Below, piece by piece: positions 3,503-20,154 of a stretch of 20,154 bases of DNA. The notes under the pieces were generated by a model. That model did not search any database. It was given only the letters and a program-made list of their open reading frames with translations, and was not told the DNA's origin. How positions within the stretch are numbered: the first letter of the stretch is position 1; each line of letters starts with the position of its first letter. The position numbers and the translations under genes are program-made. This DNA comes from Candidatus Fraserbacteria bacterium (lineage in GTDB: Bacteria > Bipolaricaulota > Bipolaricaulia > RBG-16-55-9): assembly GCA_037442925.1 (NCBI GenBank), contig JBBIPG010000041.1, positions 1 through 20,154 on the forward strand, written 5' to 3'.

Positions 3503-4603
3503 TTATACCCTTCCCCTCAGGATCTGGACAATGCGCTCTGCCGCCCGGCCATCGCCATAGGGATTACCCGGACCTGCCATCTTCGCATAGGCTATTGGGT
3601 CTTCCAGAAGCGTGCACGTCTCTCGTACGATGCGCTCTGTAGCTGTGCCGACGAGCTTAGCCACCCCCCGTTCGACGCCCTCCGGTCGCTCTGTGGTCTC
3701 ACGCAACACCAAAAGAGGCTTGCCGAACGAAGGAGCTTCCTCTTGCACTCCTCCAGAGTCCGTCAAGATGAGATACGCTTGCTCCATCAACTTGAGAAAT
3801 GGCAGATACTCCAGGGGTTCCAGTAAATGGACACGCTCGATTCCATCTAGAATGCGATGGACCGGCTCACGCACCGGAGGGCTTAAATGAACGGGATAGA
3901 CGATCTCCACCTCGGGTCGGTGCTCCACGATCTCTTTTAATGCGTGACAGATCGCTTCCAATCGATCCCCAAAGCTCTCCCGCCGATGGGCCGTCACCAG
4001 AAGCAAGCGATGGTCTTGCGGTATCGTGATCGGGGAATCCACATCGTGAAACCTCTTTTCCTGCAAGATGATGTGTAGGGCGTCCACTATCGTATTGCCC
4101 GTGAGGTGGATCTTCTTGGGGGGAATGCCCTCGGCGAGGAGGCTCTGCCGGGCACGCACTGTAGGAGCGAAGAGCCAATCGGCCAGGTGATCCGTCAGCC
4201 GTCTATTCATCTCCTCTGGGAAGGGGTGGTGCTTGTCATACGTTCTAAGACCCGCCTCTACATGAGCGATGGGAATGTGCTCGTAAAAAGCAGCCAGGGT
4301 TGCAGCAAAGGTTGTTGTGGTGTCCCCTTGGACGATGAGGGCCTTGGGGCGCTCTCTGCGCAAGACTTCCCTCAACCCGACGAGCACTTCGGTTGTGATA
4401 TGATATAGATCCTGGGAAGCTCTCATGATCGCCAGGTTATAATCAACACGGATATCAAAGAACTCGATGAAGGGATCGAGCATTTCGCGATGCTGCCCCG
4501 TGATGCAGACCTTGTACTTAATCCCTTGGCGCTCAAGCTCTCTGACGACCGGAGCCAACTTGATGGCCTCCGGCCGAGTTCCAAAGACCATTAGGATCGC
4601 CAA
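3503..4603 (-). CDS. wecB: UDP-N-acetylglucosamine 2-epimerase (non-hydrolysing)
   Basis: GTRPEAIKLAP, TGQHREML, VQGDTTT, HVEAGLRT, PFPEEMNR, TDSGGVQEEAP, TERPEG, NPYGDG. TTG start. Confidence 0.96.
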   Translation of the reverse strand: MAILMVFGTRPEAIKLAPVVRELERQGIKYKVCITGQHREMLDPFIEFFDIRVDYNLAIMRASQDLYHITTEVLVGLREVLRRERPKALIVQGDTTTTFAATLAAFYEHIPIAHVEAGLRTYDKHHPFPEEMNRRLTDHLADWLFAPTVRARQSLLAEGIPPKKIHLTGNTIVDALHIILQEKRFHDVDSPITIPQDHRLLLVTAHRRESFGDRLEAICHALKEIVEHRPEVEIVYPVHLSPPVREPVHRILDGIERVHLLEPLEYLPFLKLMEQAYLILTDSGGVQEEAPSFGKPLLVLRETTERPEGVERGVAKLVGTATERIVRETCTLLEDPIAYAKMAGPGNPYGDGRAAERIVQILRGRV

Positions 4604-4670
4604 AGAGGCCCCCTTCCCTTTTCACAGGTTTTATACAGCCACCGGTACGCCTCCGCCAAGCGCATCCAAC

Positions 4671-4699
4671 TTGACAGAACACCCGCAAGATCATACGCT
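4671..4699 (+). promoter_or_regulatory. sigma70-type promoter for the first GH113 gene
   Basis: TTGACA (4671-4676), 17-nt spacer, TACGCT (4694-4699). ATG at 4711 has no SD. Confidence 0.65.
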
Positions 4700-4710
4700 C
4701 ACAAGCCATC

Positions 4711-5748
4711 ATGAGTAATCTCGAGCGTTGGCTGGCGTTTCTTCTGGTGCTGCTCCTAGGGATACTGTTAGGGCAAAGGCATCAAGGTCCGGAACCGCTG
4801 AAGACCACGAACCTACAGCGAGGGATCAACTTCGTCGCATACGAACCAGAGCAATATCGTCTCCCCTCCATTGAGGAGGACCTAAAGCACCTGAAATCTC
4901 TCGGGGTTAACTGGGTTGCAGTCGTAGTCACCTGGTATCAGTCTGAACTCTCGTCCACGGTGATTGCACCAGTTCCAGAGCGCTCAGCTGAGGATGAGGA
5001 TGTCGTGAAATTGCTCCGCTATCTGCACAAACTGGACATGAACGCCTTCCTGCGACCGATGGTGGATGTAAGCGATGGCCATTGGCGCGGCGAGATCGAG
5101 TTCTCTTCTGAAGCCGACTGGGCTGCGTGGTTTCAGAGCTATGAGGCGTTTCTCATGCGTTATGCGGAGCGGGCGACCCGTGAGGGAGTGGATCTCTTCT
5201 CCGTGGGCGTGGAACTGGAGGGGACGGTGCAACGGGAACGCGAGTGGCGCCAGCTGATCGGGCGCGTGCGCCGTGTGTTTGCAGGCCCACTGCTCTACTC
5301 CGCCAACTGGGATGGCTATCAGAATGTCCCCTTTTGGGATGCGCTCGATTACGTGGGGATTGATGCCTACTTCGAGTTGAATACAGATCCGGATTCGAAG
5401 CTCACTCCCGATGTTCTGGCCGCGGCTTGGAGCCCGTGGGTGGAGCAATTGGACGCGTTCGCAGCGGGGGTGAGCCAGCCGATCGTGTTCACGGAGATCG
5501 GCGCGCGTAGCGTGCAGGGCACATCCCGTCGCCCCTGGGACTGGCTTAGGGAAGCTCCCATTTCTCTCGAAGAACAGGCAAACTACTATGAAGCGGCATT
5601 TCAGGTCTTCTGGGGACGCCCTTGGCTGGCCGGTCTCTACTGGTGGACTTGGCTGCCCGATCCAAAACGGGGTGGAGCAGACGACGATGGGTACTCGCCC
5701 CGAGGCAAGCCCGCCGAAGAGATCCTCAAATCTTGGTATTCTGGGTGA
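4711..5748 (+). CDS. Glycoside hydrolase family 113 (beta-mannanase-like TIM barrel), N-terminally anchored/secreted
   Basis: LGVNWVAV, LRPMVD..DGHWRGEI, WFQSY, GVEL (acid/base Glu), YSANWD, FWDALDYVGIDAYF, FTEIG (nucleophile Glu). N-terminal hydrophobic helix. Confidence 0.88.
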   Translation: MSNLERWLAFLLVLLLGILLGQRHQGPEPLKTTNLQRGINFVAYEPEQYRLPSIEEDLKHLKSLGVNWVAVVVTWYQSELSSTVIAPVPERSAEDEDVVKLLRYLHKLDMNAFLRPMVDVSDGHWRGEIEFSSEADWAAWFQSYEAFLMRYAERATREGVDLFSVGVELEGTVQREREWRQLIGRVRRVFAGPLLYSANWDGYQNVPFWDALDYVGIDAYFELNTDPDSKLTPDVLAAAWSPWVEQLDAFAAGVSQPIVFTEIGARSVQGTSRRPWDWLREAPISLEEQANYYEAAFQVFWGRPWLAGLYWWTWLPDPKRGGADDDGYSPRGKPAEEILKSWYSG

Positions 5749-5753
5749 TTCCC

Positions 5754-5782
5754 TTGAGAGAGTGGGGCATTTCGGTTATCTT
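5754..5782 (+). promoter_or_regulatory. Possible sigma70-type promoter for the second GH113 gene
   Basis: TTGAGA (5754-5759), 17-nt spacer, TATCTT (5777-5782). Confidence 0.4.
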
Positions 5783-5848
5783 TCCCTCAGCGAAAAATCA
5801 CTGCGCTTGAGTGTCTCGATGACAGGCAAAAATAAAAAAGGAGGGCCT

Positions 5849-6928
5849 ATGTGTAAGGAACGGGTGAACCTCGCACGTTTGACCTTAGCCATCACGCTTC
5901 TTATGGCAAGCACCTTAGGGGGAGCAGCGGTCGCTACTAGTCAAGCAACGTCTTCCGCGAACCCACCCTTCGTGCGAGCCGTCTGGTACACGACGGATGA
6001 CCCCAGTCGCTACTCTTCCCGGATCGTAGCCGACGATCTTGCCTTTCTGAAGGAGAAACTTTGCCCAACTCACATCTTGATCAAGGCCTTCGTCTATCAA
6101 GAGGGCAAAGATTCTGTCGATCCTAAGATCGATCCTCAGCGTACCCTCTCAGACGACGCCCTGCGTCAAATCGTCGCTCAAATTCATCAGGTAGGAATGG
6201 GTGTGGTCTTCTTGCCCGTCCTCTTTGTGGACGATGGAACGTGGGAAGGAGCCATCACGCCGTCGGATGTGGATGCGTGGTTCTCCCATTGGCTGGATAT
6301 AGTGGCTCATTATGCGGATCTTGCCGAGGAGACCAGCATAGAGATCTTGCTCATTGGCTCTGAGATGGTCACCCTCCGAGACTACCACGACCACTGGCTT
6401 AGGGTGATCGAGGCCGCGCGACAACGCTATCAAGGCTTACTCGGTTACTCGGAGAACTGGTGGTTTGATGAGGCCTTCTACCAAAGTGTCTTAGCCATGC
6501 AGCAGTGGGCCGAGCTCGACTATATCGGTGTTACAAACTATTTCGAGCTGACCGACAAAACAGATCCCAGTCTATCGGAGTTGGAGTCCGCCTGGCGCCG
6601 CAACCGAAATGGTCGCAACGTGCTCGACGACTTAGATAGGCTGAGTAGCCGATACGGCAATAAGCCCATTGTCTTCTGGGAGTTTGGCTACCAGAGCAAG
6701 GATGGCACCAACATCGAACCCTGGAATTTCCTGCGGGAAGCCGATCCCGATCCCCAAGAGCAAGCAGATGCCTACCAAGCCTACTTCAATGTCTTTTCGT
6801 CCTTTCCCTGGTGGAGTGGACAAGGCATCTTCGCAGAGCAGGTAGGGCTGCCCATGGATGCCTTCGGGTATGGTGTGCTCGGCAAGCCATCAGAGTTGGT
6901 GATCGCACAACAGGCGTGCAGCCCGTGA
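5849..6928 (+). CDS. Second, divergent glycoside hydrolase family 113 protein, secreted
   Basis: SD AAGGAGG precedes ATG 5849. Signal peptide. Motifs DDGTWEGAI, IGSEM, YSENWW, LDYIGVTNYFEL, FWEFGYQS and QEQADAYQA. Confidence 0.82.
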   Translation: MCKERVNLARLTLAITLLMASTLGGAAVATSQATSSANPPFVRAVWYTTDDPSRYSSRIVADDLAFLKEKLCPTHILIKAFVYQEGKDSVDPKIDPQRTLSDDALRQIVAQIHQVGMGVVFLPVLFVDDGTWEGAITPSDVDAWFSHWLDIVAHYADLAEETSIEILLIGSEMVTLRDYHDHWLRVIEAARQRYQGLLGYSENWWFDEAFYQSVLAMQQWAELDYIGVTNYFELTDKTDPSLSELESAWRRNRNGRNVLDDLDRLSSRYGNKPIVFWEFGYQSKDGTNIEPWNFLREADPDPQEQADAYQAYFNVFSSFPWWSGQGIFAEQVGLPMDAFGYGVLGKPSELVIAQQACSP

Positions 6929-6934
6929 TTGAGC

Positions 6935-8545
6935 TTAGCCCATCCGTCCTTCCTGGAGGGCCATCTGCATTAATCGCTGGGCATCTGCGAAACTGACGAG
7001 ACCATCGCCGTCAAAGTCGTAATAGCGACTGAACTTCTGCACCGGCTCTGAGTCATAATGAAACGCAAGTAGGATCGCATCATCTAGGGTGAGCTGCCCA
7101 TTGCCATCGACGTCTTCGAACAACCCATCCCCATCGAGGTCTTGGGGCGAGCGCAACGCATCGCCCAGCAGAGGAAGCACGATAGCCAAAGTGAACCCTT
7201 GAAGGGCTGCTTGGATAGGTCGACCTGCATCGTCAGTGAGGACTTTGACTTCCATGCTGAACTCGACATGCCCTGGCTGGAGTGTGGTCAAGGCCATCTG
7301 TGCCAGAATGATAGACTCCGCTCCAGGTCGAATCCCGTTGCGGAAATCCACAGCCCGAATCTCCATTACTCCCTCCGAATGCTGCATCACTCGGACAAAA
7401 CGGGGATCGAGCCCCGGGACCGTTGCACCGTCGAGCTGGACAAGCGCGGGGTCTGAAACGCGCACAATCACGGCGTAGCGTTGTAGTCCTTGAGGAGCCT
7501 TGGTTAGGATGAGATCTACAATTCCTTCCGCTTGCGGCATCAAGCTGGGAGGACCTGCGAGAAGAAGGGTCGTCTCGGAGGAGGGCTGGGGCAGCGGTGG
7601 CTCTGGCGTCTTTGATCCTGCGACTGCAATTTGTCCCGCGATGATGACGGGGGTCACGCTGTTTCCTGAATCGTCGATGTAGGCGACGACCTCAATGAGG
7701 AGCTGGGTGCGGCCTGCTTGCAGCCCTTCTAGGGTTAGCTGGGCCAGGATTTGATCGCGCGCGCCCGCCTCCAGTTGATGCGTCAGTAAGTCAAGCAGTC
7801 GTATTCGAATCTTGTCCGCGCCCTGCTCGAGAATCATAAACGCGTCTCCCGAAAGCACGCCCGGCGCGATCGCGGTAAATCGAGCAACAGCGGGATCCTG
7901 CATGGAAAAGACGATGTCAGCACTCTGCAGGCCCTGAGGAGCCTGGCCCAGGATGATGGCACCCTGCGTTTGCTCCCCCACTTTGAGCGTTACATCTCCT
8001 GCGCGCAAGATCGTGGGTTCTTCTTGGGCCATCTTTCCCGCAAAGACAAGCACGGTGGCAACGGATGGGATCGACACCTCTTGGCCATAGTCATCCTGGA
8101 GCCGTGCAATTCGTAAAGACGCGGTCGTCCGCGCTTCGACCATGGCTTTGACTCTGATGCGCACAAGCGGGATCTGATGAACACCTGGGCGCAGGAGATT
8201 GAAGAGATCCACGATGCGTAACCCAACGGACTTGTCTGTCTGTTTTGTCACGCGGGTCGGCCAAGCCCCCAATGGCTCCAGCTGAAAAATCTGGACAAGG
8301 CCTGTGGTATCGAAGTTGATCTCCAAGTCGACGGTTCTTAAGCCATTGGAGGCATCCTGTAGAACTACAATCAACATCACTGTGGTGGAATCCTCTGGCA
8401 GTGGAGTGGCTTCTAAGAGAAAAGAGGTTCCTTGGTCCGTAGAGGTCTGAAGCGCTAGAGCGGGCACATGGATGCTCAGAAGAAGCATGAGCCAACTGAG
8501 GGCCACCCCGAGTCCCTGCCGAGTCCACGACGCCTTCATGTTCAC
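6935..8545 (-). CDS. Secreted protein with three cohesin-like repeats and a C-terminal dockerin (archaeal-type mini-scaffoldin)
   Basis: Signal peptide, then three ~125-aa repeats sharing A(S/P)xGL...(V/L)D(L/F)...G...DDxG. Pro-rich linker KTPEPPLPQP. C-terminal paired Ca-binding loops PQDLDGDGLFEDVDGNGQLTLDD...YDFDGDGLVSFAD. Start is GTG 8545 or ATG 8539. Confidence 0.8.
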   Translation of the reverse strand: MNMKASWTRQGLGVALSWLMLLLSIHVPALALQTSTDQGTSFLLEATPLPEDSTTVMLIVVLQDASNGLRTVDLEINFDTTGLVQIFQLEPLGAWPTRVTKQTDKSVGLRIVDLFNLLRPGVHQIPLVRIRVKAMVEARTTASLRIARLQDDYGQEVSIPSVATVLVFAGKMAQEEPTILRAGDVTLKVGEQTQGAIILGQAPQGLQSADIVFSMQDPAVARFTAIAPGVLSGDAFMILEQGADKIRIRLLDLLTHQLEAGARDQILAQLTLEGLQAGRTQLLIEVVAYIDDSGNSVTPVIIAGQIAVAGSKTPEPPLPQPSSETTLLLAGPPSLMPQAEGIVDLILTKAPQGLQRYAVIVRVSDPALVQLDGATVPGLDPRFVRVMQHSEGVMEIRAVDFRNGIRPGAESIILAQMALTTLQPGHVEFSMEVKVLTDDAGRPIQAALQGFTLAIVLPLLGDALRSPQDLDGDGLFEDVDGNGQLTLDDAILLAFHYDSEPVQKFSRYYDFDGDGLVSFADAQRLMQMALQEGRMG

Positions 8546-8635
8546 ACTCTAGAAGATGAATGCACAAGGGGCAGATTGGCAATCCTGGTCGTCCATGATC
8601 GAAGCGAACCTTGTCACCCAGCAAAGAACGATCCG

Positions 8636-9910
8636 CTAGCTGTACTGACGTGCCGTCTTCGCCCATTGTGGCCTTCGCTGAAAGAGGATGTTCGTCCAGG
8701 CCAGCAGCAGCAAGGGAACCCAGTGATATGTGTACAGGGTCACCAGTATGATGGCCAGAGGCATTTGATACCAGGGTGTCTTGATCTCCCGAAGTCCCAG
8801 AAAGATCAAAGGAAAGAAACTGAAGGAATTGGCAATCAGCAGGGGGAGTGGAAAGCTATTTTGTACACCGAGTACTCCCCACTGGGCTAGGGCAAAGAGA
8901 CCGAAGGTGAATAAGACAGCGACGGGGACGATCCAGAAACTCAAATAATAGTGAAGATCGAACTTCCTCAGCCAGGGGATGTTCGCTCGCAGCAGACGTC
9001 TGCTCATGATGTAGTTCATAAAAACCTGTAAAGTCCCCCAGGCCCAGCGGTGGCGCTGGCGCAAGAGGGCTCTTAAGGATTCCACACCCTCTTGTTCGAC
9101 CTGGCGATCGAGAAAGCGAATCACTCCGCCCGTCTCATGGATGCGTATGCTCAGTTCCAGATCCTCCGTAAGACTCCCCGGAGTCCAGATGTGCCCATAC
9201 TCCCTTGCCAGAGCCATCAAGGTGCTGGCGCGCACGAATTGTCCGTTGCCTCCCAGAGCAACGGCACCGGTTGTCCCATCCCGAACCCATTGCGCGATGT
9301 AACAGAAAGTTGCAAACTCGATGTCTTGCATGCGCGCTAGCCAATGGTGTCGATTGGCGATACGGACTCCACACTGCACTGCAGCAACCTTGGAATCCAA
9401 GAACAACTCTGCCACACGCTGGACCAGGTCGATCTCTACAGGGCGGCCATCCGCATCGAAGACGCCGATGACCCAGCGCTTAGAGTTCCGCTCGGGAAAA
9501 CGATCCAAGAGATGGTAGATGCCGCTGTTGAGCGCCTCCGCCTTGCCCAGCCGAGCGTGAGGGAGTTCGCGTGCCAGTAGATAGATGCGTTCATCGGCCT
9601 GACAGAGTTCAGATGCGATCTGGCGGGTGTCATCTTGGCTGGCATCGTCGATGATCAGGATCTCCAGACGACCTACATAGGGTTGCCTGAGGAGCGCTTG
9701 CACGGTGTTCTGGAGCACCTGGCCTTCATTGAGCGCCGGGATCATGATGGTGATGACGGGAAGGTTTTCATTCGGGGAGTCATGGCCACCATTACTGCCA
9801 GATGCCAAGTTGCTGGAACGGCGTAAAAGCAGCGTGGAGATCGTGAGGAACAAGTTATAAACCAAGCAGTAGATGATGAAGAACCAAGTGAAGATATCCG
9901 TAGTGACCAC
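8636..9910 (-). CDS. Processive GT2 glycosyltransferase (PgaC/IcaA/cellulose-synthase-like polysaccharide synthase)
   Basis: IPALNE, DDASQD, GKAEALN, VFDADG, GGNG, TEDLE and QRHRW (D,D,D,QxxRW). One N-terminal and about three C-terminal TM helices. SD GGAGGAGG precedes GTG. Confidence 0.92.
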   Translation of the reverse strand: MVTTDIFTWFFIIYCLVYNLFLTISTLLLRRSSNLASGSNGGHDSPNENLPVITIMIPALNEGQVLQNTVQALLRQPYVGRLEILIIDDASQDDTRQIASELCQADERIYLLARELPHARLGKAEALNSGIYHLLDRFPERNSKRWVIGVFDADGRPVEIDLVQRVAELFLDSKVAAVQCGVRIANRHHWLARMQDIEFATFCYIAQWVRDGTTGAVALGGNGQFVRASTLMALAREYGHIWTPGSLTEDLELSIRIHETGGVIRFLDRQVEQEGVESLRALLRQRHRWAWGTLQVFMNYIMSRRLLRANIPWLRKFDLHYYLSFWIVPVAVLFTFGLFALAQWGVLGVQNSFPLPLLIANSFSFFPLIFLGLREIKTPWYQMPLAIILVTLYTYHWVPLLLLAWTNILFQRRPQWAKTARQYS

Positions 9911-9966
9911 CGAGTGCCCTCCTCCCTCTTAGGGCCGGTGAGGCACACCTGCCCTGTACCTGCCTA

Positions 9967-11850
9967 TTACTGTTGTTTGATGAACGTCTTGGGGGCAAGC
10001 CCCAAACGACTCAAGTACGCAGAAAGATTCATGAAACTCCACCCTTGCCCCTTCAAGCCCTCGATGAGTTGACCGAGTCGATCCACTCCCAAAACGGGAT
10101 GATAGAAAAAAGAGGCCAAGGCACCGTACTTCAATCCCGCCAGTAGGCGCGCTCTTGCTAGTATACGCTGGATATCCTCATCAGCGGATTCGGCCTGCAC
10201 GAAGCCCAAATCGGTGGGAACATATAGGTTGTTCTTTAATTCGACCACGAAGGGCACGATTTCTAAATCCAACCCCCAGCGTGTGGGGTCCTCATAGATG
10301 ACAGCGAAAAATTGCTCAAAGACCTGATATGCCTCGTCGCCCGCGGCATAGTGAGGGGTCTCCCAAGCCACGACCGATTGAGCTAATCCTGCCAGTGAGA
10401 TCTCGGTCAACGCCTCCAGCACACGGCGCCTGGCGTACTCCGCATCGCCGATGGGCATACCCCTCTGTGGGTCCCAAAACTCGAAATCGACCGCGGTTTC
10501 CCCTCGATTCTGATGCGTCAAACCGTGAACGACGACCTCACCACCCTTGAGCAACGCCTGCTTGACCATGAGGCGGAAGTCTGAGTCCGTGCTGAGCCTC
10601 GCCCGCACCCCGCCAGCGTCCGCGAAGACTGGGATGACTGCCAAGCTGAAGGGAACCTGGGCGTCTCCCAAATAGCCCACCACGGACAGGAGATCACTGC
10701 GCTGGGTCTTCGCATGGATGTCCTCGAGGCGTATGAGCGCGATCTGACCCCGATCGATACCGTAGACCTCATTCAAAACGTCCAGGAAGACCAGATGAGC
10801 ACCGAAGGGCGAGAGGAATGCCGTGGGGTGGAAGCCAACAAAGTAGAAGTACTCACCATCGTCCGGATGGTCCGCATGCTTAGCGCTGACAACAAGGGGC
10901 ACCGGCTGGCCGTCTTCCGTGATGACAGCGCGTGCACGAGCCAATTGAGGATTGCTGATCTTGGCCAGCATGAGTGCATTGTTTTGCAGGGTATACGCCG
11001 TGTCTGAATAGAGGTATATAAGCTCCCGAAGTTGCGAAGGAATTGTGCGATCCAGCGCTACACCGACTGCCTGCTCGGCTTCCGTCTGGGCTCGTTCCAA
11101 TTGGTACCCGATCCAGACGACCTTCTTCTTGGTGATCCCCTCTCCGTGGAAGACGTCGTCGATGAAGGACTGGGGAGGGGATTGGTTAGGGTCTAAGCCA
11201 TAATAGAGGATTACATCGTAGCCTTGATACATGTCTGCCCGATATTCCTGAAAGAGCCCTTGCTGGTGGATGACTCGTACCGTCGTCTGGTAGTAGGCCT
11301 CAAGCCAGGTGGCGAGCTTGACGACAAAGGGTTCCGTGAACTCTTGGCGTGGTGAGGTCACGAGGAGTGTCTTGGTGCGCGGGTTCTGACCCCACAGGCT
11401 GCGCACAACAAAACCGGTTGTGCCCTCACACAAGATCGTGCCGTCTGGCCCTTGGAGTTGCGCATACACACGATATGACCCTGTGACGCCGAAGATGTCC
11501 TGAGAGATGTCGAGCGTGTAGATCACGCCTTGCCACTGGAAGCTGCCTTCTAGGTTGATGGTGGGCTGGCTTTGCACACTCAGGTTGGTCCCATCTTGCT
11601 GGTCGATCTGGACGATGAGTTTCGCATTCTGGATGGCGACGGTCTCCGCGACTTGTAGGAACATCTGGATCTTCACCGGGGGGCCGGGTGCCACATACTC
11701 TTGGCTGTCGGTAAACACATCCAGCGCACAGAGGGGAGCCCCTCCTTGCAGGTCGAGTGGCCCCATCCACATCAGCGCGAACAGCAAGACGGAAAGAATA
11801 GCCTTGCGATCGCTAGATGTCAGAATCACCTTTATATGTAGACACTGCAC
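9967..11850 (-). CDS. DUF2334-family secreted polysaccharide deacetylase with N-terminal Ig-like and central alpha/beta domains
   Basis: IRLEDIH, SLAVIP, VVHGLTH, DFEFWD, WETPHY and SFFYHP. N-terminal hydrophobic signal segment. Confidence 0.82.
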   Translation of the reverse strand: MQCLHIKVILTSSDRKAILSVLLFALMWMGPLDLQGGAPLCALDVFTDSQEYVAPGPPVKIQMFLQVAETVAIQNAKLIVQIDQQDGTNLSVQSQPTINLEGSFQWQGVIYTLDISQDIFGVTGSYRVYAQLQGPDGTILCEGTTGFVVRSLWGQNPRTKTLLVTSPRQEFTEPFVVKLATWLEAYYQTTVRVIHQQGLFQEYRADMYQGYDVILYYGLDPNQSPPQSFIDDVFHGEGITKKKVVWIGYQLERAQTEAEQAVGVALDRTIPSQLRELIYLYSDTAYTLQNNALMLAKISNPQLARARAVITEDGQPVPLVVSAKHADHPDDGEYFYFVGFHPTAFLSPFGAHLVFLDVLNEVYGIDRGQIALIRLEDIHAKTQRSDLLSVVGYLGDAQVPFSLAVIPVFADAGGVRARLSTDSDFRLMVKQALLKGGEVVVHGLTHQNRGETAVDFEFWDPQRGMPIGDAEYARRRVLEALTEISLAGLAQSVVAWETPHYAAGDEAYQVFEQFFAVIYEDPTRWGLDLEIVPFVVELKNNLYVPTDLGFVQAESADEDIQRILARARLLAGLKYGALASFFYHPVLGVDRLGQLIEGLKGQGWSFMNLSAYLSRLGLAPKTFIKQQ

Positions 11851-11870
11851 GCACCCGCCACCCTCTATTC

Positions 11871-11956
11871 GGGTGCACCGGCAGCCCGGCTACCTTGGTG
11901 AAAGGTCCGTAGCTTTGCGTCCCACCCTTGCGAGTGGTTTGCCCTTATCAGCGCCC
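11871..11956 (-). ncRNA. c-di-GMP-I (GEMM-I) riboswitch aptamer
   Basis: Minus strand reads GGGCGCUGAUAA-GGGCAAA-CCACUC-GCAA-GGGUGG-GACGCAAAGCUACGGACCUUUCACCAAGGUAGCCGGGCUGCCGGUGCACCC. This gives the GGCAAA, P2 with GNRA loop, GACGCAAAGC and P3 ...AGCCGGGCUGCC elements of the GEMM-I consensus. It lies between a promoter and the first gene of the run. Confidence 0.93.
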
Positions 11957-11964
11957 TCCAGTTT

Positions 11965-11983
11965 TTTGACTACAGTAGTCAAA
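11965..11983. promoter_or_regulatory. Perfect palindrome overlapping the predicted +1 (candidate repressor operator)
   Basis: TTTGACTAC-A-GTAGTCAAA: 9-bp arms, 1-nt centre, 4 nt downstream of the -10 box. Confidence 0.6.
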
Positions 11984-11987
11984 TGCA

Positions 11988-12016
11988 ATTTTAGCCTAGG
12001 AAGAGGTCTCTGTCAA
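11988..12016 (-). promoter_or_regulatory. sigma70-type promoter for the riboswitch/DUF2334-GT2 transcript
   Basis: Minus strand TTGACA (12016-12011), 17-nt spacer, TAAAAT (11993-11988). Confidence 0.8.
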
Positions 12017-12143: not shown

Positions 12144-12917
12144 ATGCGCGTGATTGCCATTGCCAATCAAAAAGGCGGAACAGGCAAGACGACCACGGCC
12201 GTCAACCTGGCCGCCGGTCTGGCCTTGCTCAAACGAAAAGTGCTCCTCATCGATGCCGATCCCCAGGCACATAGCTCCAAACACTTCGGGATTGAAAACC
12301 CAGAGGTGACGATCGAGCACGTGATGTCCGGGAAAGTTCCTGCTCCCAAGGCCACATACGAAACGGACATCGAGAGGCTCTTCCTCATTCCTAGTTCTCT
12401 GGAACTGAGCCACTACGAGGCACGGCTCGTCACGGAGGTGGGACGCGAGACCCTGCTGAGAAACGCACTTGACCCCCTGAAGGGCCACGTGGAGTTCATC
12501 TTGATCGACTGTCCGCCGAGCTTGGATGTGATGACCATCAATGCGCTTTCTGCGGCCAAGGAGGTCTTCATCGTCTCCCAGAGCGAGTATCTATCGCTCG
12601 ATGGGGTAAGGCAGCTGAGCGATACCATAGAGATCGTCAAGAGGAGAATCAATCCGGCGCTCCAGATCGGGGGCATCATTCTTACCATGCATAACGACCG
12701 GATTATTCTCAGCCAAGAAGTGTCTCAGTTGCTCGAAACGTCTTTCCCTGGGAAAGTGTTCCAGACGAAGATCCATCGCAATGTTCGGTTGGCAGAAGCC
12801 CCCAGCCGAAGGCAGCCCATACAACGATATGCCCCCAATTCCCGTGGCGCACGGGATTATAATGCGCTAGCCAAGGAGGTCTTAAGCCGATGGCGACGAA
12901 ACGGAAGAGCATCGTAG
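12144..12917 (+). CDS. parA: ParA/Soj-family Walker-A ATPase
   Basis: NQKGGTGKTTT (deviant Walker A), IDADPQ, LIDCPP, IHRNVRLAEAPS. No N-terminal HTH. Confidence 0.95.
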   Translation: MRVIAIANQKGGTGKTTTAVNLAAGLALLKRKVLLIDADPQAHSSKHFGIENPEVTIEHVMSGKVPAPKATYETDIERLFLIPSSLELSHYEARLVTEVGRETLLRNALDPLKGHVEFILIDCPPSLDVMTINALSAAKEVFIVSQSEYLSLDGVRQLSDTIEIVKRRINPALQIGGIILTMHNDRIILSQEVSQLLETSFPGKVFQTKIHRNVRLAEAPSRRQPIQRYAPNSRGARDYNALAKEVLSRWRRNGRAS

Positions 12918-17500: not shown

Positions 17501-17578
17501 GGCGGCGTAGCTCATCCGGTCTAGAGCGTCCGTCTCATAAGCGGAAGGTAGTGGGTTCGAGTCCCACCGCCGCCACCA
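17501..17578 (+). tRNA. tRNA-Met(CAT), probably elongator
   Basis: Acceptor GGCGGCG/CGCCGCC plus ACCA. Anticodon arm TCCGT-CTCATAA-GCGGA (CAT 17536-17538). T arm GTGGG-TTCGAGT-CCCAC. G1:C72 is paired. Confidence 0.93.
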
Positions 17579-17603: not shown

Positions 17604-17679
17604 GGGGACGTAGCTCAGTTGGGAGAGCGCTGCGTTCGCAACGCAGAGGTCGCCGGTTCGAATCCGGTCGTCTCCACCA
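17604..17679 (+). tRNA. tRNA-Ala(CGC)
   Basis: Acceptor GGGGACG/CGTCTCC with G3:U70, plus ACCA. Anticodon arm CTGCG-TTCGCAA-CGCAG (CGC 17637-17639). 76 nt. Confidence 0.97.
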
Positions 17680-17941: not shown

Positions 17942-18427
17942 ATGCCTGTGATTATGCAGCAAGAGGAATTCGTACAGCTTTTCCGTAAATACCTCAGAAG
18001 CCGAGGGTTTCACATCACGCACGTCCGAGAGCGGATCGCCCAAGAGGTCTTTCAGCTCTCAAGCCATTTCGATGTGTCGGATCTTTGGGCCAAGCTGCAG
18101 CCAGAGCGGATCGCTCCGGCGACCATCTACCGCACGCTGGAGCTTCTTAGAGAAGCGGGTTTGGTGAGAAGACTGCTTGTAAAAGAGCGTACTTGCTATG
18201 AGGAGAATCTAGGCCGTCCCCATCATGAGCATCTGGTTTGCAGTCAGTGTGGGCAGGTCGTCGAGTTCAGCGATAGAATACTCGAGGACCGCTTGGCAGA
18301 GATCGTCGAGGCCCACGGATTCCGGCATCAGGCCCATCAAGTGCTCATTTGTGGGCTGTGCCCCGCCTGTCAACAAAACTCAAACAGCGAGTCCTCCAGC
18401 CTAGGGGGACCGGAGGCTCGCTGCTAG
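17942..18427 (+). CDS. Fur-family transcriptional regulator (Fur/Zur/PerR clade not resolved)
   Basis: SD GGAGG. Motifs ATIYRTLELL, HHEHLVCSQCG, VEF and GLCPAC. Confidence 0.93.
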   Translation: MPVIMQQEEFVQLFRKYLRSRGFHITHVRERIAQEVFQLSSHFDVSDLWAKLQPERIAPATIYRTLELLREAGLVRRLLVKERTCYEENLGRPHHEHLVCSQCGQVVEFSDRILEDRLAEIVEAHGFRHQAHQVLICGLCPACQQNSNSESSSLGGPEARC

Positions 18428-18483: not shown

Positions 18484-18573
18484 ATGTCTAGCAAGCATCG
18501 CCATTCTACCTCGCCCCCGGTGGAAAGAGAATGGAAGTCCGGTGAAAATTCGGTGGAAACGCTTTTCATCTAA
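18484..18573 (+). CDS. Candidate 29-aa small ORF (MSSKHRHSTSPPVEREWKSGENSVETLFI)
   Basis: Full SD TAAGGAGGT (18469-18477) lies 6 nt before ATG 18484. Stop TAA 18571-18573 overlaps the convergent gene's stop. Confidence 0.4.
   Translation: MSSKHRHSTSPPVEREWKSGENSVETLFI
18518..18561. repeat. Four 11-bp-phased direct repeats
   Basis: CGGTGGAAAGA / GAATGGAAGTC / CGGTGAAAATT / CGGTGGAAACG starting at 18518, 18529, 18540 and 18551. Confidence 0.6.
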
Positions 18574-19877
18574 AACCGAAGGGTCAAGCCCAGGACCCAA
18601 CCCCGCCGATTGTGGTAACCCAAGCTCAACCAGTGCTCCCCCACACGCAGAGCCGCTCCGCCAAAGACCGTAAGATACGTGGCCGTTTCGCGATAGCCGT
18701 TCGGCATGATTTCAACCAAAGGCCTCATGCCCAAGGCGCTCACAACAATAATAGAATCGCCAGGCGCAGCTACGTGAACGCGCTCTTGCACGGCCACACC
18801 ACCACCTATATGGAGCTGGAATGTCTCCAAGAGCGGCAGCGAAAGCTTTAAATAGGCTTCTGTCTCCGGCCCCTGATTGTAGATGCGCTCGCGGGGGAAC
18901 AGCTCTGGATGTCCTATGTCAAAATAGTTGGGGACTTCGTCCTCCGTGAAAGAAACCGACCCCCCTACGCCCAAGCTGGAAGAGAATCCCAGTTCCAGCC
19001 CTGCACTGAAGATGCTTTCTGCATTGAGCCCGGCGTTTAGCCCCAGTGTGAACGAAGGAACCTCTAGAACGTTCTCATCTGTCGATATCGGAGGAGGAAA
19101 GAGGGGAGGAGGTACGGGATCCAGCCGGATGCTCAACTCCTGGAGAGCACGGTTCTCTAGAGTGATAGTCTTCGACCAACGCTCGTAGCCCTCTTTCACC
19201 AGGGCAACCTGAACCTGGCCCGGTTCGATATCTAGACTTAGAGGGCTCTGGCCGCGCAGTTCCCCATTGACATAGACTTGAGCCCCAGTGGGTTCAGAGG
19301 CGATCCTCAGATACGCCACAGCCGGAGCAACCAGAAATTGGGTCCAGTCCGCAGCCCACTCGCCTGGTTCGACGGTGATCTCAATCAGTTTCTGTACTTG
19401 CGGTTTGAGGGCTTGGGGATCGCCACTCAACTGGGGAAACGGGTGCGCTTCCAGGTCGCCTTGGGCGCTCAATGCGAGAAGTGTGATGGGCTTCAGTAGG
19501 GCCAGAGCCTGAATGGACTCCACTCCCAACGGTTCGGTCACCACGAAACTGTAGCTATTCTTATCAGGTAGGGTGTATTTGCCCGCCTTCAAGAAGTTAT
19601 TTCGGGAGAATCCGTTGGGGAAGAGGAGAATCACTTTGCCCGCCGGGTTGATGTCGTAGATGTACACATACGCATCTTTGCTCAGCTCTACATCCAGCTT
19701 GAGAGCCTCTTTCGGGCTATAGATCTGATGATCCGTCTTGATCTGGATAGAGAGATGGCTTTGGGAGGGTGCGGTGATGATCCCTTGCGGGACAACTTTT
19801 TCTTCCACGGAGCTTCCCAACGTGCCCAACCCCATCAAGCCGAACAGCAATAACGGAATGAGGCGCTTGCGCATCAT
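18570..19877 (-). CDS. Exported DUF4384 + PEGA domain protein with a C-terminal outer-membrane beta-barrel-like region
   Basis: Signal peptide. DAYVYIYDINPAGKVILLFPN (DUF4384). IASEPTGAQVYVNGELRGQSP...KEGYERW (PEGA). Alternating beta-strands ending WVLGLTLRF. Confidence 0.85.
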   Translation of the reverse strand: MMRKRLIPLLLFGLMGLGTLGSSVEEKVVPQGIITAPSQSHLSIQIKTDHQIYSPKEALKLDVELSKDAYVYIYDINPAGKVILLFPNGFSRNNFLKAGKYTLPDKNSYSFVVTEPLGVESIQALALLKPITLLALSAQGDLEAHPFPQLSGDPQALKPQVQKLIEITVEPGEWAADWTQFLVAPAVAYLRIASEPTGAQVYVNGELRGQSPLSLDIEPGQVQVALVKEGYERWSKTITLENRALQELSIRLDPVPPPLFPPPISTDENVLEVPSFTLGLNAGLNAESIFSAGLELGFSSSLGVGGSVSFTEDEVPNYFDIGHPELFPRERIYNQGPETEAYLKLSLPLLETFQLHIGGGVAVQERVHVAAPGDSIIVVSALGMRPLVEIMPNGYRETATYLTVFGGAALRVGEHWLSLGYHNRRGWVLGLTLRF

Positions 19878-20154
19878 CCTCACCTTCTTGATTTCAGCTA
19901 CACGCTTCAGAGCTCAAGGGTTTCACCTGATCCATCATAGGAATCTAGAAAGGACAGTGCAAATCATCATCTCTTTTGACATCCACGATTTTGTCTATAC
20001 AAAGCCCGATGCATGAGCAGGTGAAAGTGCTGTGCTATTGGTCCTGAACACGATCGGAATACCCGCCTTCCCCTTGACAAAGACCTCCCCAGCTCTTTCC
20101 CTCTGGGAAAAGCCTCTCACCGGAGGGATGATCATGTCTGAGCTGGAGAGGTTC

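Follow-up and report, generated by a model that had tools for sequence, protein, structure and literature searches.

Synthase-dependent exopolysaccharide (EPS) systems in which a family-2 glycosyltransferase (GT2) works under the control of cyclic di-GMP (c-di-GMP) are known from Listeria monocytogenes (Pss) and Bacillus subtilis (Yda), and a related locus with a product rich in N-acetylmannosamine (ManNAc) has been deduced in Clostridioides difficile. Here, we analyze a locus that resembles these systems in Candidatus Fraserbacteria bacterium (phylum Bipolaricaulota; assembly GCA_037442925.1). The stretch of DNA studied, called the window below, is the entire 20,154-bp contig JBBIPG010000041.1 (C41), part of a 2.07-Mb assembly of 86 contigs that is 94% complete and has a G+C content of 56%. 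It contains an operon that is headed by a c-di-GMP-I (GEMM-I) riboswitch and encodes a DUF2334 protein, a GT2, and a cohesin-dockerin protein, and next to it wecB and two genes of glycoside hydrolase family 113 (GH113). On balance, this operon together with wecB and the GH113 pair probably constitutes a synthase-dependent EPS system of the Listeria Pss, Bacillus Yda, and Clostridioides ManNAc-EPS kind. Its nature as an EPS system and its riboswitch are well supported; a ManNAc product, its partial deacetylation, and the role of the GH113 enzymes are plausible, with support that is independent but indirect.

In L. monocytogenes, the product of pssA to pssE and pssZ is described as a beta-1,4-linked ManNAc chain bearing alpha-1,6-linked galactose in the sections of PMC4125290, PMC6307706, and PMC13492145 that treat the polymer. 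PMC4125290, where it introduces the genes, presents PssC as the GT2, PssD as a BcsB-like protein, and PssE as the GGDEF receptor, and Table 1 of PMC6307706 lists PssB as the deacetylase of this EPS. The window locus shares with Pss, as outlined in these sources, the c-di-GMP-dependent type of synthase with its GT2, deacetylase, and dedicated hydrolase. However, c-di-GMP is sensed in Listeria by the degenerate-GGDEF protein PssE and here by RNA, and a counterpart of the BcsB-like PssD was not found in the window or the genome.

In B. subtilis, YdaLMN are needed for c-di-GMP-dependent EPS, with YdaJ as the hydrolase and YdaK as the receptor, according to the relevant parts of PMC13274460 and PMC9800504. 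The operon has a SigB-dependent promoter and a protein receptor, YdaK, and no riboswitch, unlike the arrangement in the window. The ydaJKLMN operon is linked to the window locus by the name YdaL, which the Joint Genome Institute (JGI) gives to DUF2334 homologs; in control genomes, the DUF2334 and BcsB profiles matched in B. subtilis, and DUF2334 was absent from Escherichia coli. It differs in having neither a GH113 gene nor wecB. PssZ belongs to GH8 and not to GH113, and both Firmicute hydrolases, PssZ and YdaJ, fall into families other than that of the two enzymes found here. The likeness to Pss and Yda is one of gene families and JGI naming rather than of direct alignment to YdaL, YdaM, PssB, or PssC.

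The closest precedent is the C. difficile 630 locus of Scott et al. 2020 (PMC7710045), for which that paper deduces, on bioinformatic grounds only, a partially deacetylated, ManNAc-rich EPS. As presented there, it combines a GT2, a GH113 protein, WecB, and a deacetylase distantly related to family CE4, all of which have counterparts in the window. In contrast to the window, that account includes a BcsB homolog forming a BcsA/BcsB-like pair, and it reports no cohesin-dockerin gene. An earlier note on this DNA, made from the letters alone, had put forward the combination of genes as possibly undescribed. This does not hold, since the sections of PMC7710045 on the locus already bring together GT2/BcsB, GH113, WecB, and a deacetylase and reach the same conclusion on the polymer. 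The C. difficile EPS locus is not among the c-di-GMP riboswitch targets in the table of PMC11477304.

Proteobacterial Nfr-type loci offer a more distant parallel. The E. coli GT2 NfrB reportedly needs WecB and makes a ManNAc polymer. PMC8669469 states, in the passage concerned, that its function depends on c-di-GMP. On a Ralstonia wenshanensis plasmid (L030 2916-11366), an NfrB-like GT2 with an MshEN domain, an NfrA_C protein, wecB, and a DUF2334 gene lie together, and the DUF2334 protein is 25% identical to that of the window over residues 183 to 610 (E 1e-36); the match recurs in 136 Ralstonia plasmid records. A Comamonadaceae plasmid (L045 4725-13671) has the order wecB-GT-DUF2334-TPR-DUF4434. 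These plasmid loci share wecB and a homologous DUF2334 gene with the window. They differ in that the GT2 itself carries the c-di-GMP sensor, an MshEN domain, that export proceeds through the outer membrane by NfrA, and that GH113 is missing. Poly-N-acetylglucosamine (PNAG) systems (PgaABCD/IcaADBC) are comparable in their small membrane GT2 synthase, extracytoplasmic de-N-acetylase, and hydrolase activity; they differ in using a CE4 deacetylase of the PgaB/IcaB type, where the window has DUF2334 and GH113 hydrolases.

Searches of open-access full text found no c-di-GMP riboswitch placed before such an EPS locus in print, and a review from 2021 on how c-di-GMP controls EPS (PMC8461298) mentions riboswitches once, generically. 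The only relevant match for GH113 in combination with exopolysaccharide, N-acetylmannosamine, or biofilm was the C. difficile paper. Neither Acetothermia nor Bipolaricaulota was named among the matches listed for c-di-GMP, cohesin, riboswitch, and exopolysaccharide, in searches that did not require the phylum name. Three traits look new: sensing by a riboswitch where other systems have a receptor protein, the lack of BcsB, and the partnership with a cohesin-dockerin protein. The locus is a regulatory and architectural variant of known EPS machinery and not a new kind.

Conservation of the locus in related genomes

A scan of species-representative genomes yielded 17 related loci, mostly from metagenome-assembled genomes (MAGs) of Acetothermia/Bipolaricaulota, and their genes were identified by tblastn with the window proteins. 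The GT2 gene adjoins the DUF2334 gene in 16 of the 17; in the exception, L023, the DUF2334 gene is truncated and GT2 is missing. GH113 is likewise present in 16, and the remaining locus (L021) ends within the GT2 gene. Orthologs of the second enzyme, GH113b, occur in 15/17 loci and a further copy of the GH113a type in five; WecB was found in six and the cohesin-dockerin gene in five. This synteny, together with natural DUF2334+GH113 and GT2+DUF2334 fusions (see below), supports the reading of the gene set as one conserved functional unit rather than a chance assembly.

The riboswitch is conserved as well. Eleven loci include at least 400 nt of upstream DNA; Rfam scans placed a GEMM-I aptamer there, in the orientation of the operon, in nine of them and found none in the other two (L014 and L022). 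In one locus (L024), the GT2 gene comes first in the operon, and the available DNA ends 48 nt before it. Most relatives have GH113b after the GT2 gene on the same strand, which places GH113b behind the riboswitch there; in the genome studied here, the cohesin gene occupies the place of GH113b, and the GH113 pair is inverted.

One Acetothermia MAG (L010) has three GEMM-I aptamers within 6 kb (3726-3802, 4235-4323, and 9527-9603), two of them in tandem ahead of secreted proteins without a known family, beside the EPS locus.

Gene layout and leader of the operon

All the genes that the earlier note had listed, along with the promoter-like site and the GEMM-I aptamer, are present in the sequence (Table 1). 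On the minus strand, 56 nt separate the DUF2334 stop codon from the GT2 start, and 90 nt lie between the GT2 and cohesin genes. The plus-strand GH113 pair converges on this operon, and wecB is divergent from GH113a. A hydrophobicity scan found N-terminal hydrophobic segments in all the extracytoplasmic parts of the system.

Table 1. Coordinates of the riboswitch-led operon and the adjoining genes in the window
Feature	Position	Strand	Evidence
Promoter-like site, sigma-70 type, TTGACA-17 nt-TAAAAT	11988..12016	-	11/12 consensus matches
Perfect 8-1-8 palindrome TTGACTAC-T-GTAGTCAA	11966..11982		Read from sequence
c-di-GMP-I (GEMM-I) aptamer	11876..11952	-	RF03167 69.7 bits, RF01051 68.4 bits
Short expression platform	11851..11875	-	CACCC/GGGUG hairpin, GAGGGUGG Shine-Dalgarno-like stretch, GUG start
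YdaL-like DUF2334 protein, 627 aa, extracytoplasmic	9967..11850	-	PF10096 4.9e-35 on residues 371-598
GT2, processive synthase type, 424 aa	8636..9910	-	Glyco_tranf_2_3 1.7e-22, Glyco_trans_2_3 3.7e-21
Secreted 536-aa protein, three cohesin-fold modules and one C-terminal dockerin	6935..8545	-	Fold and repeats
GH113b, 359 aa	5849..6928	+	PF22612 1.6e-42
GH113a, 345 aa	4711..5748	+	PF22612 8.3e-72
WecB, non-hydrolyzing UDP-GlcNAc 2-epimerase, 366 aa	3503..4603	-	Epimerase_2 8.4e-121; TIGR00236

The scan for promoter-like sites returned seven in the region against 4.3 in shuffled sequence, so that the site by itself is weak evidence and draws its support from its position only. Between its -10 hexamer and the aptamer sits the palindrome TTGACTAC-T-GTAGTCAA, for which folding predicts a hairpin where the leader begins. 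It could serve as the binding site of another regulator, that is, as an operator, or form a hairpin at the 5' terminus of the mRNA.

The aptamer matches RF01051 over model positions 1 to 87, 33 bits above the gathering score of 35. RF03167, the c-di-GMP-I-GGC variant, scores slightly higher (E 6e-15; gathering score, 59) and wins the Rfam clan competition, and its label is preferred at 14 of the 17 GEMM-I sites of the genome, too. We take the ligand-contact and variant-defining positions to be G20, A47, and C92 in Vc2 numbering. The corresponding segments, read from the alignment and the sequence, are AAGGGCAAAC, ACGCAAAGC, and GCUGCCGG. The aptamer reads ACGCAAAGC where the GGC-variant consensus is ACGCGAAgC, and the alignment shows no match in this column: in place of the variant-defining G it has the canonical A, and the remaining two contact positions are G and C. 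Because the distinguishing base is the canonical A, we treat the aptamer as an ordinary c-di-GMP sensor; by its contact bases, it belongs to the canonical c-di-GMP-I class and is predicted to bind c-di-GMP. All 17 sites of the genome are of the GCAAAGC/GCAAAAC type at this point, apart from the single-base variants GUAAAGC (C43) and ACAAAGC (C54).

The aptamer ends 25 nt upstream of the GUG start of the DUF2334 gene on the same strand, and the leader scan found no U-tract terminator downstream of it. Free folding of the leader (minimum free energy, -65.6 kcal/mol) pairs the 5' strand of aptamer helix P2 with the GAGGGUGG-GUG Shine-Dalgarno/start region; with the aptamer enforced (-59.3 kcal/mol), this region is held by a 5-bp local hairpin only. 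These models weakly favor a translational ON switch. Among the aptamers of nine relatives, a U-tract terminator follows convincingly in L025 only and possibly in L018.

Upstream of the operon and divergent from the riboswitch promoter, a gene for a ParA/MinD-type ATPase of the BcsQ family (CBP_BcsQ 1.9e-14) lies at 12144-12917 on the plus strand. It was considered as a BcsQ-type localization factor and rejected, as none of the 17 related loci contains a homolog that scores more than 60 bits. The window also contains two tRNA genes (17501-17575 and 17604-17676), a FUR-family regulator gene (17942-18427), and a gene for a DUF4384-PEGA protein (18570-19883); as far as seen, these are not related to the locus.

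The synthase and the DUF2334 protein

The GT2 has one N-terminal hydrophobic segment (residues 4 to 30) and three C-terminal ones (residues 321 to 349, 353 to 373, and 384 to 405). It contains the motifs DAD, TED, and QRHRW, which match what we take to be the synthase motif set (D, DxD, TED, and QxxRW). It matches the PgaC_IcaA family (E 4.6e-27), and with 95 bits against a cut-off of 422, the protein is not a PgaC/IcaA ortholog.

The DUF2334 protein begins with a hydrophobic anchor or signal (residues 16 to 35), followed by about 330 residues of unassigned fold and the DUF2334 domain (residues 371 to 598). Its N-terminal 370 residues had no match in Pfam or the Protein Data Bank (PDB) and nothing above chance in the ESM Atlas. 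The DUF2334 profile weakly matched the C-terminal part of 7ax7_A (E 0.0012). In an alignment of 22 homologs, D377, H442, H446, H500, and H584 are among the invariant residues; D377, H442, H446, and H584 are presumably the metal and acid residues of a CE4-type enzyme. Homologs number 82, about 70 of them full length and 43 to 82% identical, including several from Candidatus Bipolaricaulota records and two that bear the JGI name YdaL. Four of the 82 are fusions of DUF2334 with GH113 (P0071-P0074), and two are fusions of a GT2 with DUF2334 (P0076-P0077).

The DUF2334 genes of some MAGs are shortened or lie in two pieces (L023 6244-7425, L025 10001-11723, and G036 C14:51446-53186), which may reflect frameshifts, decay, or assembly errors.

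GH113 enzymes, WecB, and the identity of the polymer

Both GH113 proteins exceed the PF22612 cut-off of 27 bits by far (GH113a, 242 bits; GH113b, 146 bits), and each has a signal- or anchor-like N-terminus. Translation of GH113b most likely begins with the ATG at 5849, which AAGGAGG precedes, rather than at the open reading frame start at 5588. GH113a aligns to 4cd6_A/3civ_A, Alicyclobacillus ManA (E 4e-43), with VGVE and FTEIG against VGCE and FMEVG. The two Glu residues are thus kept in GH113a and, via its alignment to GH113a, in GH113b; we assume this pair to be the catalytic acid/base and the nucleophile. All solved GH113 matches are annotated as endo-beta-1,4-mannanases. In line with the view of the earlier note that these are processing rather than catabolic enzymes, the pair are the only two clear GH113 genes of the genome, and GH130 was not found in the 94% complete assembly. 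Given also the synteny and the DUF2334+GH113 fusions, the GH113 proteins are better read as putative enzymes for the polymer of the locus itself than as catabolic mannanases. By analogy, beta-1,4-ManNAc is a plausible substrate, since such a chain corresponds to mannan bearing an acetamido group in axial position.

In relatives (L010 13236-15353), the GH113b ortholog is extended at its N-terminus by about 390 residues that have no Pfam match and are missing from the window copy.

WecB in the window scores 490 bits against the TIGR00236 cut-off of 210. The copies at related loci are 47 to 58% identical to it, the lowest value coming from a 95-residue partial match at the end of L013. UDP-ManNAc is suggested as the sugar donor because wecB adjoins the locus. 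The earlier note had proposed a partly de-N-acetylated ManNAc polymer: its EPS system is well supported, and the case for ManNAc as the monomer and for partial de-N-acetylation is circumstantial, WecB accompanying six of the 17 related loci.

A second WecB paralog of the genome, 39% identical to the window copy, lies in C17:7015-14058 (L041) with genes for a DegT-type aminotransferase, a GFO/IDH/MocA oxidoreductase, and a polysaccharide pyruvyl transferase. This run is probably a cell-wall glycopolymer pathway. With a separate use of ManNAc in the cell wall thus probable, the window WecB looks like an extra copy.

A cohesin-dockerin protein in the operon

Module limits in the 536-aa protein are about 40 to 157, 178 to 297, and 325 to 455 for the cohesins and about 470 to 530 for the dockerin. 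Residues 325 to 473 recur at 178 to 297 (31% identity, E 4.5e-12) and at 40 to 157 (27%, E 1.9e-7). The earlier note had read the protein as three cohesins and a dockerin, a description that is confirmed by fold and missed by Pfam. Pfam matched only EF-hand_7 (8.5e-5) and Dockerin_1 (0.0012) at residues 477 to 527; the Pfam cohesin family PF00963 was not matched even at an E value of 10, and a sequence search of the PDB gave the same result.

Library-wide, phmmer with residues 325 to 473 found 210 relatives at E <= 0.001, and among the 60 of these that were scanned, Dockerin_1 was present in 18 and Cohesin in two. Three of the four homologs of the full-length type carry Dockerin_1. A profile of 42 sequences matched the ScaC cohesin 5lxv_A (E 2.5e-4). 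AlphaFold2 modeled residues 325 to 536 from a 42-row alignment with a pLDDT of 97.4; modeling of the protein from its single sequence gave a pLDDT of 36, and the fold call thus needed the library-derived alignment. The best 33 Foldseek matches listed against the PDB (ranks 1 to 44) were all cohesin modules with a probability of 1.00, headed by 5nrm_A (E 7e-9, TM score of 0.78 on the target). Target TM scores were 0.72 to 0.78 in the top ten, except for the longer 5lxv and 6kg8 chains (0.58 to 0.67). By the model of the third module and the repeats, the three modules have the cohesin fold and are too divergent for Pfam.

The model of residues 325 to 455 matches type I, II, and III cohesins, and the C-terminus has the duplicated calcium loop of dockerins, with a Dockerin_1 match that is weak here and clear in homologs. 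Unlike in cellulosomal systems, there is no cellulase or carbohydrate-binding module context around the gene. In three relatives, the cohesin proteins are built as two consecutive cohesin-dockerin units (L009 2910-4382, L018 7481-8878, and L022 5527-6951), an architecture that would allow head-to-tail chains. Elsewhere in the genome, two dockerin-like sites and one cohesin-like open reading frame were seen. Because there are few other dockerins and cohesins in the genome and relatives with the repeated architecture exist, self-association of the protein is a reasonable idea. Its role as a matrix scaffoldin, given that the gene accompanies five of the 17 related loci only, is speculative.

These other sites include a separate pair at C7:7435-9014, where a gene for a 356-aa secreted LTD-PKD protein with a dockerin-like end is followed by one for a 170-aa lipoprotein with a cohesin-like domain.

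The c-di-GMP network of the genome

GEMM-I is nearly universal in the phylum (59 of 61 high-quality genomes), and the 17 aptamers of this genome are the most among these 61, the others having 0 to 13. They are distributed over contigs C8, C15, C18, C21, C26, C27, C33, C34, C36, C40 to C43, C54, C58 (two aptamers), and C65. The sole GGDEF gene of the genome encodes a 723-aa GAF-GGDEF protein on contig C37; EAL and PilZ were not detected in the genome. In the window, the Pfam scan found no GGDEF gene, and the operon is hence without a degenerate-GGDEF receptor. The c-di-GMP output network thus looks almost purely RNA based. The riboswitch-led genes scanned elsewhere include those for a 1,465-aa protein with Big_9/cadherin repeats, an 847-aa S8 subtilase, and many secreted proteins without a family, a set whose composition would fit a surface or matrix regulon.

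Proposed mechanism and alternative explanations

In the mechanism that we propose, c-di-GMP from the single GAF-GGDEF protein would bind the leader and alter access to the ribosome-binding site. WecB would supply UDP-ManNAc, and the GT2 would polymerize and translocate a beta-linked N-acetylhexosamine chain, most likely beta-1,4-ManNAc. Outside the cell, the membrane-anchored DUF2334 domain would strip part of the N-acetyl groups, and the GH113 pair, likewise secreted, would shorten the mannan-like chain or set it free, a part that PssZ, BcsZ, or the hydrolase domains of PgaB and PelA take elsewhere. The cohesin-dockerin protein would be expressed from the same operon as a component of the cell surface or the matrix.

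Several observations weigh against this proposal. The DUF2334 gene is patchy in the phylum: 17 of 184 genomes carry it, with this one counted, as do 8 of the 71 of high quality, and it occurs in none of the eight other genomes of the organism's own family. A BcsB-like co-polymerase (PF03170) was found neither in the 94% complete genome nor in the window, whereas its counterparts PssD and YdaN are required in the Firmicute systems. The curated families that the GT2 matches are an XrtP-associated glycosyltransferase (192 bits), PgaC_IcaA (95 bits), and NodC (60 bits), all below cut-off, and its resemblance to the NfrB-like GT2 of Ralstonia is marginal (E 0.024). The link to YdaL consists of JGI naming and the DUF2334 profile match in B. 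subtilis. Both states of the leader have a base-paired ribosome site in the thermodynamic folds. Where the earlier note had spoken of a system under riboswitch control, this applies to the DUF2334-GT2-cohesin run, the only genes behind the riboswitch in this genome; the GH113 pair and wecB are separate transcription units outside the operon. Finally, the DNA fetched for the 17 related loci contained WecB in only six cases, and the second WecB and a WecG/TagA gene elsewhere in the genome point to an alternative use of UDP-ManNAc.

The last points bear on a reading in which the locus is a riboswitch-controlled EPS locus with a polymer of the N-acetylglucosamine (GlcNAc) type, PNAG or chitin/chitosan-like, and WecB is an incidental neighbor that serves a cell-wall glycopolymer. 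PgaC/IcaA and NodC, two of the families that the GT2 matches, use GlcNAc, and 11 of the 17 relatives lack WecB in the fetched DNA; the ManNAc-transferase-type WecG/TagA gene elsewhere would provide it with another destination. Yet GH113 in 16/17 loci and its fusions to DUF2334 fit poorly with beta-1,6-linked GlcNAc, solved GH113 enzymes being beta-1,4-mannanases. Furthermore, WecB recurs beside a homologous DUF2334 gene in two unrelated proteobacterial loci and is part of the C. difficile locus as PMC7710045 sets it out, and the cell wall could be served by the second WecB with its aminotransferase, oxidoreductase, and pyruvyl-transferase genes. We therefore regard a GlcNAc polymer as unlikely.

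Two further readings concern single parts of the locus. That the GH113 proteins are ordinary catabolic beta-mannanases for plant or algal mannan, adjoining an EPS operon by chance, would agree with the annotation of every solved match as an endo-beta-1,4-mannanase, with the retention of both Glu residues, and with the position of the genes on the opposite strand outside the riboswitch-led operon. It is very unlikely considering that GH113 accompanies the YdaL-GT2 pair in 16/17 loci, usually downstream on the same strand, that DUF2334+GH113 fusions exist, and that the genome has no other clear GH113 and no GH130, with no sugar transporter or mannose-catabolic gene found in the window by the Pfam scan. 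Least probable of all is that the aptamer is a true c-di-GMP-I-GGC member sensing another ligand, in which case the locus would not be controlled by c-di-GMP. The Rfam clan competition speaks for it at this site as at most sites of the genome; the mismatch, however, falls precisely on the extra G of the variant, where ACGCAAAGC is canonical-like, and the RF01051 score lies well above its threshold, so that we give this reading hardly any credence. A riboswitch-led, synthase-dependent EPS system with a polymer of the ManNAc type is the explanation that we prefer.

Implications

A bolder extension of this explanation, which we consider doubtful, is that c-di-GMP signaling in Bipolaricaulota runs almost wholly via RNA and that one switch turns on a complete matrix module. 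This module would comprise a BcsB-less synthase for a ManNAc/mannosamine (ManN) polymer with its deacetylase, a mesh of cohesin-dockerin proteins joined head to tail, and GH113 enzymes as processors of the ManNAc/ManN polymer. If true, this would be the first physiological role in biofilm matrices for GH113, for DUF2334/YdaL, and for non-cellulosomal cohesin-dockerin pairs.

One enzyme core, a GT2 with a DUF2334/YdaL-type deacetylase and often WecB and a hydrolase, appears under three unrelated c-di-GMP sensors. Firmicutes use a GGDEF protein of the degenerate type, Nfr loci like that of Ralstonia a synthase with its own MshEN domain, and Bipolaricaulota an mRNA riboswitch. The core is thus a clear example of convergence, in which a single output has been connected to a single signal in different ways. 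The compact machinery of four to six genes, without BcsB and without a receptor protein, is suited to heterologous expression and could settle the role of YdaL/DUF2334, the nature of a Yda/Pss-type polymer outside Listeria, and the action of GH113 on ManNAc/ManN chains. The phylum is uncultured and represented by MAGs alone, and the locus provides a concrete prediction on its surface attachment and the regulation of this attachment.

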